Shown piece after piece: positions 127 through 4,916 of a stretch of DNA of 44,978 bases. Origin of the DNA: a virus. Lineage: Duplodnaviria; Caudoviricetes. How positions within the stretch are numbered: position 1 is the stretch's first letter; the number at the start of each line of letters is the position of its first letter. A model generated the notes under the pieces. It saw nothing but the letters and a program-made list of their open reading frames with translations. It searched no databases and was not told the origin of the DNA. The DNA is taken from IMG/VR virus record IMGVR_UViG_3300017658_000128, positions 1-44,978 of that record; one strand, given 5' to 3'. The position numbers and the translations under genes were made by a program.

Positions 127-936
127 ATGCAGCCTCAGATAATCGGGTTCGGAGCCCACAAAGCTGGTACTACTTGGCTCCACGACAACTTGGTCACCAA
201 TCCTGGAGTGTGGCCACCGCCTCTCAAGGAAATGCACTACTTCAGCCATCGTATGACGGGAAATCGCTGGATGATGCGAGGCCATCGCGAGCGACTCAGA
301 GGCCGACGGGACCTTGCCTTGTCGAACGGCATGACAGGCAAAGCCGCATACTTAGGGCGCCTCCTGAAGATTCCCATGCTATCCGAAGAGTGGTATCGGG
401 CCGTCTACAATCGGTGCCCCGCAGACAGGCAGTCTCTCGACATAACGCCCGCCTATGCTTTGCTGGACGAGGACACGCTGCGCTATATGAATTGCCTGCT
501 CGGCGACCAGTTCAAGGCGATCTATCTTATACGCGATCCGGCCAGTCGTATCATTTCGGCCGTAAAGTCCTACGCCGCAGCTGCAGGCAGAAAGGGTAAA
601 ACCATCGAGTTCTGGCTGGAACATGTCACGCAACCGGCTCATCGGTTGCGAAGCGATTATCAGCGAACCGTGAATTTGCTCGATGAACAACTCGGCGATC
701 GGGTGCTCTATCTCCCATTCGGGAGGTTAAGAACCGATCCAGTTAACGTACTCCGCGAAGTCGAAGCACATTGCTGCTTGCCGGAAGGCGACTATCAGCA
801 ACCCGAAAAGCCGAAGCACGTCTCTCCACTAGTCGTCTTACCAGAAGGGTTGTATGACGCCGTGCAGATCCTTCTGCGAAAACAATATGACTGGCTCGAA
901 CAGAGGTTCGACCGGAGCTTCCTCCTATCAGTATGA
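127..936 (+). CDS. Sulfotransferase family protein
   Basis: 5'-PSB loop GAHKAGTTWL, then KEMHYF, DITPAY and 3'-PB motif RDPASRIIS. ATG at 127 preferred. Confidence 0.85.
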   Translation: MQPQIIGFGAHKAGTTWLHDNLVTNPGVWPPPLKEMHYFSHRMTGNRWMMRGHRERLRGRRDLALSNGMTGKAAYLGRLLKIPMLSEEWYRAVYNRCPADRQSLDITPAYALLDEDTLRYMNCLLGDQFKAIYLIRDPASRIISAVKSYAAAAGRKGKTIEFWLEHVTQPAHRLRSDYQRTVNLLDEQLGDRVLYLPFGRLRTDPVNVLREVEAHCCLPEGDYQQPEKPKHVSPLVVLPEGLYDAVQILLRKQYDWLEQRFDRSFLLSV

Positions 937-1189
937 CGACTAGAGGAGTCCCAAAGGTGGGCGATGCTGAACACCTGCCCGCCACCGCAGACCAGCAAAT
1001 GCTGAGCGAGCTGCCCAGCATGTTTTCCGTGCGGGGCATCTCGCACCGGATCAGTAGCACTGCGCGAACATCCGTCGAAGCCACGTCGATGGCCATGAAC
1101 CCAGAGCTCTGGATCGGGTCCAAGGCATCAGTCGTTGCGCGGCTTGCAAGCAGACGCGAGTCTGATCGCAAGCCACCGCTGCCCAGATA

Positions 1190-2641
1190 TCAGGCGTTTG
1201 CCACTTCTGGCGTGGCGGGCACTTCGGCCGTGCGCGTCACCTTCCAAGGCCAACCGTAGTAAACATCCGGGGTCGGCCAAGTGGGTCCATAGCGCTCAGT
1301 CAAAAATCCAGCCGCATCGCCCGGTGCCGGAAAAGTTCGACCGTGGATCTGGGCCGAGCCGGAGGGCAAAACAAGCTCCGCCGCGATATCGCGATACCGC
1401 ATCTGCTCCATCAGCAAATGCAGCCGTTCGCCCACGCGCCACGATGGGAACAAATCAAGCGAAGCTCCCTCGACAAACACGTGGAAATTCTTACCGAGTG
1501 TCTCTCCCCCGCACTTCACTCCCGCTGCGTTAAGCTTTTCGATGAGTACCTGTTGGCCGGCAATGACTTCGTCATGCGTGGTCGATCCGTCGAAGTAAAG
1601 CAAATCCACATCGTCATCATGGGCCAAGAATCCACCTTCGCGAACTGCCCCGAGCAGAGTGCCGTAGCTGAGAACCAAGGGGATACCAAGCTGTTCAAAG
1701 ACGCCAAACAGCTTGTCCATCGCGTTCAAATGCACCTCACGCCGTTCGATTAGCCGAGCATAATGCATATGATGCTTGGACAACGTAACCTCGCGGGGCG
1801 TTCCACTTACGCGCGATGCGATCCGGCTCGCCCGTAAACGGACACGGTCGATCACCTGATCAGAATGCAAAAGCTGGGATGCAAATCGTATACTGCGCGT
1901 GCCAGCATAATTTTTTGCTTTCATCGCAGCCAAAATCATTGCGGCGCAGATTGCCTCTTCATAATCATCTGGATCCCGCACCTCTCCGAACATGGGAAGC
2001 AGCGCAAACATTTCTTCAACATTCAGGCTCAGCTTGCCTGATTCGGCTGCCTCGAAAATGGAAGCGCGCATGGCATTGCGAGTTGCCTCCAGATCGAACG
2101 TCTCCTCCTGCGGAAGTGTAAACGCAATCGCATCCGCGATCTGGCGGAATGCCTCCAGTCGACGCGAAGGATCCATGTTGTCATAACTGACGCAGCAGAC
2201 CCCCTTTGAGAATGCTCGAAGGGTGATGAATTGCGAACGCTTGTGACAAACCCCCTCCCGGTTAGGGACAGTTATCTTGCTGACGAACACTGGTCGTTTT
2301 AGCCGAACGATGACGGCGGGACAGATCTCGCGACCGCTGTGAAGCATCTTGCCGGTGATAGCGAATTCCAACAGGTTCTCTGGCTCATGACCCTGACGGT
2401 GGCTCGAGAGCGTAATATCGGCGTAGATATCGCGACGAGGAATTTCATTTCCGTCTGCATCATGGAAGATCGGAGCAAAGAAGTTCACGAACTCAGGTGT
2501 GGGCGCGGAGACAGCCAAAACAATACGATCGATTTCCATTCCGACCTCAATCGAAAGATTGGGTCGCGTATCTTTTCCAAAGGCTCCAAAGCCCGGCAAC
2601 ATTTGGGCGGCAAGAAGATGCAGCTGGAGTAAGTTCGTCAT
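1190..2641 (-). CDS. LicD-family phosphotransferase with N-terminal discoidin/F-type-lectin-like domain
   Basis: C-terminal LicD signature YGTLLGAVREGGFLAHDDDVDL, plus LDLF and FLTERYGPTW. N-terminal H-x26-R-x-G-x4-R pattern. Confidence 0.85.
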   Translation of the reverse strand: MTNLLQLHLLAAQMLPGFGAFGKDTRPNLSIEVGMEIDRIVLAVSAPTPEFVNFFAPIFHDADGNEIPRRDIYADITLSSHRQGHEPENLLEFAITGKMLHSGREICPAVIVRLKRPVFVSKITVPNREGVCHKRSQFITLRAFSKGVCCVSYDNMDPSRRLEAFRQIADAIAFTLPQEETFDLEATRNAMRASIFEAAESGKLSLNVEEMFALLPMFGEVRDPDDYEEAICAAMILAAMKAKNYAGTRSIRFASQLLHSDQVIDRVRLRASRIASRVSGTPREVTLSKHHMHYARLIERREVHLNAMDKLFGVFEQLGIPLVLSYGTLLGAVREGGFLAHDDDVDLLYFDGSTTHDEVIAGQQVLIEKLNAAGVKCGGETLGKNFHVFVEGASLDLFPSWRVGERLHLLMEQMRYRDIAAELVLPSGSAQIHGRTFPAPGDAAGFLTERYGPTWPTPDVYYGWPWKVTRTAEVPATPEVANA

Positions 2642-2663
2642 TTGAATGCCCTAATAGATATCG

Positions 2664-3122
2664 TCAGTGCAACTGCATCACGAGCGAGTTCAGCGCATCG
2701 AGCCCGTTCTTCAATTCGACGATCTTTTCCTTTTGAAACGCCTTGATTGCAGCCTTCAGCTCAGTAGTGGAAATGCCGTCGGTGCGCGGCAGGTACATGA
2801 CCTCACACAGGGCATTCAGCTCATCGAACTTGCCCTCCCAGTCGTGCCCCATCACAAAGACATCCGCGCGGTGTTCACGGATATCACGCTCCTTCTGCCC
2901 CCAGTTATGCTCTGGGAAGACAGCATCGACACAGCGCAGGGTCTTCAGGATCCGTGCACGGTGCTCATAAGGAAAGACACTTTGCTTGCCCTTGATCGCA
3001 TTGAACTCGTCGGATGAGACGCCGACGACCAACCGGTCGCCAAGCGCACGCGCCCGCTCCAAGATCTGGACATGTCCAATATGGAATAGGTCAAAAGTGC
3101 CATAGGTAATAACAGTTTTCAT
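2664..3122 (-). CDS. tagD: Glycerol-3-phosphate cytidylyltransferase (TagD-like)
   Basis: MKTVITYGTFDLFHIGH (HxGH motif), VGVSSDEFN, MGHDWEGKFD and RTDGISTT are family hallmarks. Confidence 0.9.
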   Translation of the reverse strand: MKTVITYGTFDLFHIGHVQILERARALGDRLVVGVSSDEFNAIKGKQSVFPYEHRARILKTLRCVDAVFPEHNWGQKERDIREHRADVFVMGHDWEGKFDELNALCEVMYLPRTDGISTTELKAAIKAFQKEKIVELKNGLDALNSLVMQLH

Positions 3123-3926
3123 AGTCCTCACGCTCCCGTCCACAGGCACGGGTGCGAAGAGGCGAGGTGCATTGCCCCCTTACACCGCAATGCCTTTGCG
3201 ACACTGTCGCAGTATTACCATCTGCCGCTCTGTCGCAGTTTAGTCATATACCCGTTACAATCATTGATTGCGAAGGGGAAGCCCAAAGATCCCGCTTGGC
3301 GCGCAGTTCGCTCACCAAATAGGCAGAGCAAGAACCGTCATGGGGACGCGCCGGGACCAAAGGCAGCAGTGCTGAAAGTCTCGACAATCTGACGCTCTTC
3401 TTGGTAGAGATGGGGCGAGCGAGCCCCTGCCTACTGCGTAGGATCAGCCCATACGTAGACCAGCAGTTTTCCGATGAAATCGGCACGCATCCTCAGTGCG
3501 GCCATCGGATTTGACGGTAACCCCGAGCACACCCAACGAGTCCGGTGCGGTCCGCATGCCGCCTGTCCTGCGGAGCCCATGCCGATGTGCCCGAATGCTT
3601 CCAAGGCCGACTCATCGCTAACCAGCCTTCGTCTCCCAGCGTGTCCCCTCCAATGGGCAGTCCAAGTTCTAGAACGATGATCACCGCAGCTTTGCAGCCG
3701 CAGGTGCGCGCTTGGATTTCTGATCGGCGAACGCCTTGATTGTGTAACAGTCCTGTGACATTCGGATGAAGAGAGTACCAGGACAGGGGATTCGAAGGAT
3801 GCCGACCACTGACTACGGGATGATCAGCCTCTCGAATGGTACCCCCATTTTTCCACGTTTTCTGAGGGCAGCGCCATTCGCCCACCTTGCAGACCTTGAG
3901 CTTGATCCGATCGCATGGTGCGACGC

Positions 3927-4916
3927 ATGAGCATAGCAGTCATCGGGGCGGGTGCCTTCGGGACAGCGCTCGCTCTAACGCTGGCGACCAAGACTTCTGT
4001 AACTCTTTGGGGACGAAACACTGGCTGGGCGGCGACACGAGAAAACCCGCGATTGCCAAATGTTCCCCTACCCGACGACCTCCATGTCACCGACGATCTG
4101 GACCAAGTCGAAGCGGAGACGATTCTTCTTTCTTTGCCAGCACAAACTCTCGCGAAATTTCTGGCTCAAAACTCCGCTCGATTGAACGGCCGGAACATAG
4201 TTAGCTGCGCCAAGGGAATTGACTTGTCGACCCTGACGGGAATGTCTTCCCTGATCAGTGATGCCTGTCCGGAATCCACTGTAGCGGTTCTGACGGGACC
4301 GAGCTTCGCAGCTGACATTGCTCGCGGATTGCCGACGGCAATGACGTTGGCCTGCGCGGATTCTGAGATGGCGGAGGAATTGCAAGGCCAGCTTTCGACG
4401 GGGACACTGCGGCTTTATCGCACCACGGACGTGATTGGTGCGGAGTTAGGCGGCGCACTGAAAAACGTGATCGCGATTGCCGCGGGAGCAGCGATCGGCG
4501 CCGGATACGGCGACAGTGCTCGGGCCAGCGTAATCACTCGCGGCTTTGCTGAAATGGTGCGGCTTGCTTCAGCCTTGGGGGCTTGGCCCGAGACGCTGAC
4601 AGGGCTCTCGGGGATGGGAGACCTTATGCTCACCTGCACTTCGAACCAATCGAGAAATTTCCGCTATGGGTTGGCACTTGGAGCGGGGGAAGGCTTCGAT
4701 AATAGAGCTACGGTCGAGGGCGCGGCGACTGGGCGGGCGGTGGCAGTATTGGCCCCAAAGCTCGGGATTGAACTTCCAGTTTCGGGGCTGGTCGCGGGTC
4801 TGACCGAGGGGCGGATCTTCATGGATCAGGCTCTCGATATTCTGCTGAACCGTCCTCTCAAGGAGGAATGGGTAGCCCAGCCAGCGCAAGCCAACATGAT
4901 AGCTGCCCTCGCCTGA
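3927..4916 (+). CDS. gpsA: NAD(P)H-dependent glycerol-3-phosphate dehydrogenase
   Basis: [11 protein letters not shown]ossmann motif, [28 protein letters not shown] and SRNFRYG. Confidence 0.95.

Follow-up and report, generated by a model that had tools for sequence, protein, structure and literature searches.

A TagD, LicD and GpsA gene set at the end of a Paracoccus prophage as a probable lysogenic-conversion module for glycerol-phosphate on a host surface glycan

The DNA considered here is a stretch of 44,978 nucleotides (IMG/VR record IMGVR_UViG_3300017658_000128, hereafter the window), which Pfam and PHROG scans identified as a temperate siphophage-type prophage with terminase, portal, capsid, tail, endolysin and integrase genes. 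The host of the prophage is Paracoccus, and the site of integration is tRNA-Pro. Toward one end of the prophage lie genes for a TagD-type cytidylyltransferase, a LicD-type transferase and the glycerol-3-phosphate (G3P) dehydrogenase GpsA, and we propose, with a probability of about 0.62 and from sequence comparison, that the three form a lysogenic-conversion module that would place glycerol-phosphate on a surface glycan of the host. An earlier note on this DNA had pointed to these genes, clustered with a sulfotransferase gene near the lysis genes (endolysin at 5796-6614), and indeed all four open reading frames (ORFs) are present and open, and their Pfam families were confirmed:

127..936, plus strand: sulfotransferase (Sulfotransfer_3) dependent on 3'-phosphoadenosine 5'-phosphosulfate (PAPS), with GAHKAGTTW and IRDP motifs, of a Paracoccus-type family
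1190..2641, minus strand: LicD/FKRP-type phospho-alcohol transferase, with an F5/8-like beta-sandwich N terminus, a helical middle and a catalytic nucleotidyltransferase (NTase) domain
2664..3122, minus strand: TagD-type glycerol-3-phosphate cytidylyltransferase, with HIGH and RTDGISTT motifs; possible upstream GTG at 3149
3927..4916, plus strand: GpsA, NAD(P)H-dependent glycerol-3-phosphate dehydrogenase; possible upstream ATG at 3915

TagD matched PF01467 (E 7e-27), and its best solved-structure matches were 1coz, the B. subtilis glycerol-3-phosphate cytidylyltransferase (E 3e-50), and 2b7l (E 9e-48), compared with E 7e-20 against ethanolamine cytidylyltransferase and E 1e-10 against the choline enzyme. 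With TagD/TarD of teichoic-acid synthesis (1coz, 2b7l) it shares a full-length alignment and the HIGH-type and RTxGISTT motifs, whereas it differs in an extra C-terminal extension of ~25 residues and in having a LicD partner instead of TagB/TagF.

LicD matched PF04991 (E 6e-8; 33.5 bits versus a cut-off of 22.6) and contains the motifs YGTLLG, H341-D342-D343-D344-V-D346 and D396, of which YG, H341-D342-D343-D344, D346 and D396 are invariant in 40/40 homologues. The top fold match of its AlphaFold model (predicted local distance difference test score 93.5) was FKRP (Foldseek E 9e-8; VIA Z 15.0, root mean square deviation (rmsd) 3.1, 159 aligned). When paired by motif spacing, LicD D342/D344/D346/D396 appear to parallel FKRP D360/D362/D364/D416, and according to the available part of the FKRP study (PMC6965139) its catalytic aspartates are essential and cytidine diphosphate (CDP)-ribitol is the donor. 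As far as the accessible portions of the sources extend (PMC6965139, PMC11982090, PMC7188991), FKRP/fukutin and bacterial LicD proteins have in common with the prophage protein the NTase fold, an hG[GS]-like motif, three catalytic aspartates and a CDP-alcohol donor; the prophage LicD differs in that its ~21% identity concerns the catalytic domain only, in its N-terminal domain and in its predicted donor, CDP-glycerol. The N-terminal domain is likely carbohydrate-binding, because modeled residues 19-149 resemble the domain at the C terminus of the galactanase BT0290 (Z 9.5, rmsd 3.1, 123 aligned), and 9/40 LicD homologues gave F5/8-type C matches at E<=0.01.

GpsA matched PF01210 (E 2e-32), PF07479 (E 2e-41) and NF000942 (349.6 bits versus a cut-off of 257), its GAGAFG, ALKN and SRN motifs are invariant in 16/16, and it is 76-80% identical to housekeeping copies of Paracoccus. 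The homology is bounded exactly by the gene (3925-4870), the tsaD/yciI neighbors are absent, and the stop codon has been lost, leaving a 15-residue read-through tail; the prophage gene is a second Paracoccus copy that has been relocated. A single gpsA match was obtained in 154/155 Paracoccus genomes, that of the genome G118 (see below) being 77% identical and set in tsaD-gpsA-EVE. Pairwise ratios of nonsynonymous to synonymous change against six host copies were 0.06-0.11, a measure that spans both lineages and has synonymous sites near saturation, and they fit a functional second copy that has long been kept.

We next consider where genes of this kind occur elsewhere; the counts are samples among the matches listed. 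Near full-length LicD matches fell in 43 loci, or 39 after removal of 4 duplicates. A TagD homologue lay <=600 bp from LicD in 18/39 loci (one at 36% identity) and in 15/19 proteobacterial genome loci, and a match to the pyruvyltransferase-like gene of the prophage (see below) in 7/39. Several licD-tagD pairs reside inside polysaccharide clusters with Wzt-type ATP-binding cassette (ABC), GT2/GT4, RgpF, Capsule_synth and rml genes; the Idiomarina cluster (L116) also contains two sulfotransferases and CysD-type genes, and the Kordiimonas cluster (L115) a pyruvyltransferase and CysD/CysNC. These chromosomal modules in capsule/O-antigen clusters (L097, L101, L110, L112, L115, L116, L117) thus share the LicD type and TagD with the prophage, and sometimes have sulfotransferase, PAPS-synthesis, pyruvyltransferase or glycerol-3-phosphate dehydrogenase (GPDH) genes in the same cluster, but they accompany polymer synthesis and export genes, whereas the prophage has decorating enzymes only. 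We found no paper characterizing such modules or the window-type LicD with its domain resembling a carbohydrate-binding module (CBM).

Further, LicD of this type repeatedly has a potential supplier of G3P as its neighbor. The licD of Roseococcus (L117) is followed after 4 bp by the gene for a GPDH that is 29% identical to the prophage GpsA, with a second licD and a tagD nearby; a 72%-identical LicD (L202) has a glycerophosphodiester phosphodiesterase (GDPD) gene downstream; and one protein (P0023) is a LicD-GDPD fusion. We read these cases as repeated recruitment of unrelated G3P suppliers beside window-type LicD. Two gpsA proteins with lost stops, moreover, are on contigs equal in size (10670 and 4215) to those of 68-69%-identical LicDs, although co-location of the pairs P0004/P0205 and P0005/P0206 is deduced solely from the equal contig sizes. 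Both gpsA proteins (P0205/P0206) group with P. yeei, apart from the prophage copy, and the approximately unbiased (AU) test rejected a single origin (p 0.002; 25 rows, quick tree, with the group defined once a first tree had been seen); a wider gpsA tree, also quick, had 121 rows. Because of the tagD linkage and the repeated recruitment of G3P suppliers, the glycerophosphorylation route is well supported.

The four genes belong to the phage. The elements that bound the prophage in the window are as follows:

1..20, plus strand: left prophage arm, with the arm-type motif TGCAAAC[CG] at 11
43742..44848, plus strand: tyrosine integrase, with arm-type motifs at 44811 and 44823
44852..44904, no strand assigned: 53-bp core of the attachment (att) site, overlapping the 3' part of tRNA-Pro(TGG)
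44857..44933, minus strand: tRNA-Pro(TGG)

An att search across the window found no second copy, and no internal degenerate core was detected either (best partial matches 13/15, far away). The overlapping IMG/VR record L001, which is 100% identical to the window over 12,641 bp and extends 839 bp further left, contains a perfect 53-bp copy of 44852-44904 that ends 104 bases left of base 1 (spanning 104-156 left); together with two further TGCAAAC[CG] copies it sits 19-156 bases left of the window. This motif occurs six times in the window plus the L001 overhang, in 5/6 cases on the same strand and no more than ~115 bp from one or the other core, as would be expected of integrase arm sites. Among 155 Paracoccus-genus genomes only G118 matched the host flank, and it has an empty attB: the left flank (98.6% identity; Stf0 sulfotransferase, aspartokinase and ptsP) and the right flank (100% identity over 127 bp; tRNA-Pro and DUF192) abut. 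G118, for which genome completeness is not given, had no match to tagD or licD and no PF04991. An attL to the right of 4916, with the genes syntenic in prophage-free relatives, would have refuted the earlier note, but this is not what is seen: because the att core is duplicated at both ends and the site is empty in G118, the sulfotransferase, licD, tagD and gpsA all lie inside an att-bounded prophage of ~45.0 kb. The available part of a Paracoccus virome study (PMC6536676) describes tRNA-Pro(TGG) as an established prophage site in this genus.

We suggest that GpsA would convert dihydroxyacetone phosphate to sn-glycerol-3-phosphate, easing the drain on phospholipid precursors, and that TagD would convert G3P to CDP-glycerol. 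LicD, its N-terminal domain binding the acceptor, would then transfer glycerol-phosphate in the cytoplasm, ahead of export, onto a glycan intermediate, with an ABC-exported O-antigen or capsule chain as the most likely acceptor; tagD-licD would be the core and gpsA an optional booster. The chemistry, from G3P through CDP-glycerol to transfer by LicD, is the part we consider likely, a surface polysaccharide as the acceptor is somewhat less so but still probable, and masking of a receptor by the decoration is rather less likely than not. Protection against phage adsorption would be the likeliest candidate benefit. The donor that TagD would make appears to be absent from the host. TagD matches were present in 10/155 Paracoccus genomes, not including G118, and full-length LicD homologues in 4/155, at 30-32% identity. 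At the family level, full-length LicD was found in 1/401 genomes, namely the seed genome, and GenBank phages and plasmids gave partial LicD matches only, 3 each. In agreement with the cytoplasmic placement and with the earlier note, which had seen no signal peptides, a crude hydropathy scan revealed no membrane or signal-like segment in the cargo proteins (highest 19-residue mean 1.84, at the Rossmann start of GpsA). The note's precursor, activation and transfer route thus stands on the enzyme identities and the neighborhood evidence, but "self-contained" overstated it, as G118 has its own gpsA and PAPS would come from the host.

Several observations weigh against this reading. Because no gpsA match occurred in the LicD loci (0/39 full-length loci listed) or in the viral records (0/5, comprising four LicD/TagD-bearing records and one relative, four being fragments), the tagD-licD pair probably usually works without gpsA. 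Neither gpsA nor the four-gene set was found in any other IMG/VR contig searched. Rather than a single operon, the four genes make up three transcription units: the minus-strand genes tagD and licD have 22 bp between them, gpsA diverges from tagD, whose start is ~800 bp away, and the sulfotransferase gene is convergent on licD. Promoter and terminator scans of the cargo gave no signal above chance. Against TIGR01518 TagD scored 161.7 bits, under the cut-off of 165.4, with the full profile covered and this family far the best. Donors also vary across LicD-family members, CDP-choline, CDP-ethanolamine and CDP-ribitol being named in the available parts of PMC11982090 and PMC6965139, and orphan alphaproteobacterial tagD-licD pairs among housekeeping genes (L083-L085, L107, L330, L331) give no clue to an acceptor.

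These last two points lead to the first alternative, namely that the same chemistry serves a glycolipid, a protein-linked glycan or a virion component, or uses another CDP-polyol. The accessible text of PMC11982090 has the LicD-family protein Mf1 acting on glucosyl-diacylglycerol with CDP-choline or CDP-ethanolamine, that of PMC6965139 has FKRP using CDP-ribitol, and the orphan pairs lie outside glycan clusters. Against another donor, the partner is TagD-type and neither IspD/TarI nor LicC, and G3P-supplying genes recur near window-type LicD; against another acceptor, many LicD homologues are in polysaccharide clusters. As for a virion component, GC content at third codon positions (GC3) is 0.59-0.69 in the four cargo genes versus 0.78-0.84 in lysin, tail, capsid, portal and terminase genes, so that the cargo differs from the virion operon, and none of the cargo genes was present in the other endolysin-related phage loci (0/79, within the fetched flanks); therefore the cargo is not a core virion function. 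We regard this alternative as improbable.

Scarcely different in weight, and if anything a little less probable, is the view that the genes are independent passengers, tagD-licD being a mobile cassette and gpsA and the sulfotransferase having been picked up separately at a recombination-prone prophage end, where each would serve an unrelated purpose such as lipid or redox balance or a different sulfation. The three transcription units agree with it, as do the Paracoccus derivation of both gpsA and the sulfotransferase, the nearby IS5 remnant, the related phage L005, which has an identical att core and different cargo, and the lack of the four-gene set in the other viral contigs searched. For gpsA alone, recruitment of GPDH/GDPD beside window-type LicD several times speaks against it, and so do the P0205/P0206 gpsA proteins, which are placed in another Paracoccus clade (AU p 0.002) and are on contigs size-matched to 68-69%-identical LicDs. 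Very improbable, finally, is a third view, in which the genes belong to the host chromosome or to a distinct islet placed in tandem at the tRNA, and do not travel with the phage. It would account for a cargo GC of 0.53-0.58 versus ~0.65 in the phage backbone, and no attP junction or excision was seen in read contigs, which end at the att core; it is opposed by the perfect outer att core, the empty site in G118, the lack of an internal att copy and the presence of cognate arm motifs on the left. Cassette depth, too, was close to phage body depth in runs X1 and X2, which are not independent evidence as they may be the source of the window DNA.

The sulfotransferase (PF13469, E 4e-11, scanned from an upstream TTG at 118) has PAPS-binding motifs that are conserved in its homologues, and G118 has ATP sulfurylase/adenosine phosphosulfate kinase for PAPS supply. 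Homologues were found in 143/155 Paracoccus genomes, five of them at 51-60% identity, G118 included; the neighbors of these five, as checked, included no glycan genes. The window-type sulfotransferase was matched in 0/39 of the full-length LicD loci listed, and none of the homologues listed was on a contig equal in size to those of close LicD homologues. That it acts on a target shared with the glycerol-phosphate route, as the earlier note had it, is rather unlikely on present sequence comparisons, and for this gene an independent passenger is about as likely as our preferred reading. Another provirus (L449:2319-3152) has a sulfotransferase (31%) at its end past the tail genes, in opposite orientation, and the first host gene outside the left att is itself a Stf0-type sulfotransferase (L001:12832-13449 / L327:10252-11079).

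A second glycan block lies between lysis and tail genes, beyond the interval of the earlier note, and brings the prophage total to six glycan-related genes:

5796..6614, minus strand: endolysin (muramidase plus peptidoglycan-binding domain; Pfam/PHROG), the lysis module lying between the two cargo blocks
8078..8980, minus strand: polysaccharide pyruvyltransferase-like gene (Pfam)
8928..9256, no strand assigned: IS5-family transposase remnant, between the pyruvyltransferase-like and GT8 genes
9394..10698, plus strand: GT8 glycosyltransferase, GC 47%

The pyruvyltransferase-like protein is 28-34% identical to domains fused to or beside window-type LicD in Actinobacteria; like the sulfotransferase, it had no significant PDB sequence match. 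The GT8 protein matched 0/155 Paracoccus genomes. The genes for the sulfotransferase, the pyruvyltransferase-like protein and GT8 were probably acquired separately, and their products probably decorate surface glycans. A wider reading would join everything into a multi-enzyme kit that makes its own CDP-glycerol and puts glycerol-phosphate, sulfate and pyruvate as well as a further sugar on one host polysaccharide, masking phage receptors; the kit would belong to an undescribed, recurring class of TagD-driven cassettes in temperate phages of Proteobacteria, with a LicD or a TagF-like transferase and independently recruited G3P suppliers. We consider this unlikely as a whole.

Three other phage-type contigs carry licD-tagD: in L159 the pair, oppositely oriented, has tail genes on one side and a GH19 lysin on the other, in L160 it adjoins Mu-like tail genes, and in L158 it is between an integrase and a small terminase. 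They form a Pseudomonas-linked clade separate from that of the window. The trio that the earlier note would have sought in other prophages is thus represented by licD-tagD, gpsA not being seen on these fragments. A complete 57.7-kb provirus (L361:5652-7120) encodes a TagD (56%) and, next after it and beside a phage lysozyme, a glycerophosphotransferase that weakly resembles TagF (PF04464, E 2e-4, under the cut-off); this is apparently another version of the phage glycerol-phosphate cassette, one that lacks LicD. Short LicD domains are encoded on many environmental viral contigs (L161-L201, L358-L429), as are cytidylyltransferases, TagD-like or other, and some of these genes are adjacent. One LicD (P0017) is fused to a C-terminal domain without a Pfam match, whose start motif we take to be sulfotransferase-like, and a 30% homologue of this domain is encoded immediately upstream of licD in Idiomarina (L116:8991-9944).

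Other observations concern the remainder of the element. The portal gene (26836-28316) is broken by a frameshift near 28054; X1 and X4 contigs (one sample) have one extra base there and X2 is the same as the window, so the break is lineage-specific and some phage copies probably have an intact portal. Run X2 also contains a related strain with scattered base differences at L001:12764-13480, where the host flank is ~3x cassette depth, consistent with a co-occurring strain without the prophage, the depth not being a share of cells. A TerB-like tellurite-resistance gene (phrog_632) is at 40282-40716, and such genes are reported in other Paracoccus phages in the available part of PMC6536676. A 993-residue beta-helix-like tail protein (10760-13741; no PHROG match, weak PF13229) is a candidate spike for binding or depolymerizing polysaccharide, a role that would suggest a glycan as the receptor. 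Two plus-strand ORFs in the cargo regions (4926-5243 and 7404-7982) had no family match, and the spacers 3130-3930 and 4870-5320 had zero matches in plasmids. A DNA-hypermodification role was set aside, as no such partner was present among the scanned window proteins, many of them unannotated.

The known lysogenic conversions of the cell surface work by addition of glucose or acetyl groups or by exchange of a polymerase; in gtrABC/oac, membrane proteins add the glucose or acetyl. As far as the available sources go, gtrABC/oac (Shigella Sf phages, P22, BTP1) are likewise carried near att by temperate phages and alter the surface polysaccharide. The prophage enzymes differ in being soluble, predicted to be cytoplasmic and phosphodiester-forming, and in bringing their own donor supply; the earlier note's statement that they are unlike gtrABC/oac was borne out, as the cargo proteins have neither a Gtr/Oac-type Pfam match nor a membrane segment. 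The predicted module would therefore resemble lysogenic serotype conversion in its working without being a member of gtr/oac. Nearer to it are the Flandersviridae, for which the accessible text (bioRxiv 10.1101/2020.10.07.330464) reports an insertion of ispD and licD and proposes a surface-polymer change against superinfection. Both have an accessory phage-borne cytidylyltransferase and LicD pair, and in both the surface-modification role is a hypothesis. The Flandersviridae, as described there, are gut phages with an IspD-family partner in the replication module, whereas the prophage has a TagD-type partner, a captured gpsA, a LicD with an N-terminal CBM-like domain, a location at the end of an alphaproteobacterial tRNA-integrated prophage and three more glycan genes. 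The earlier note's claim of a new system must accordingly be narrowed, since such a pair with the same hypothesis is already in print; what differs is the TagD-type partner and the captured gpsA. Our literature search, with most subscription journals outside it, found no description of a prophage TagD-LicD-GpsA set, and the text and supplements searched of the Paracoccus virome paper (PMC6536676) do not mention LicD, glycerol, cytidylyltransferase or sulfotransferase.

Overall, if our reading is true, the chemistry of lysogenic conversion would be widened to anionic decoration in Gram-negative environmental bacteria, a surface change so far only hypothesized for phages. The prophage would import a nucleotide donor that its host appears to lack, together with a precursor enzyme and a phosphodiester-forming transferase. 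Small, with three genes and soluble products, and with a G118-like strain as a naturally phage-free control, the system makes the phage-LicD hypothesis directly testable, and it would provide the first function for the widespread LicD type with a CBM-like domain.

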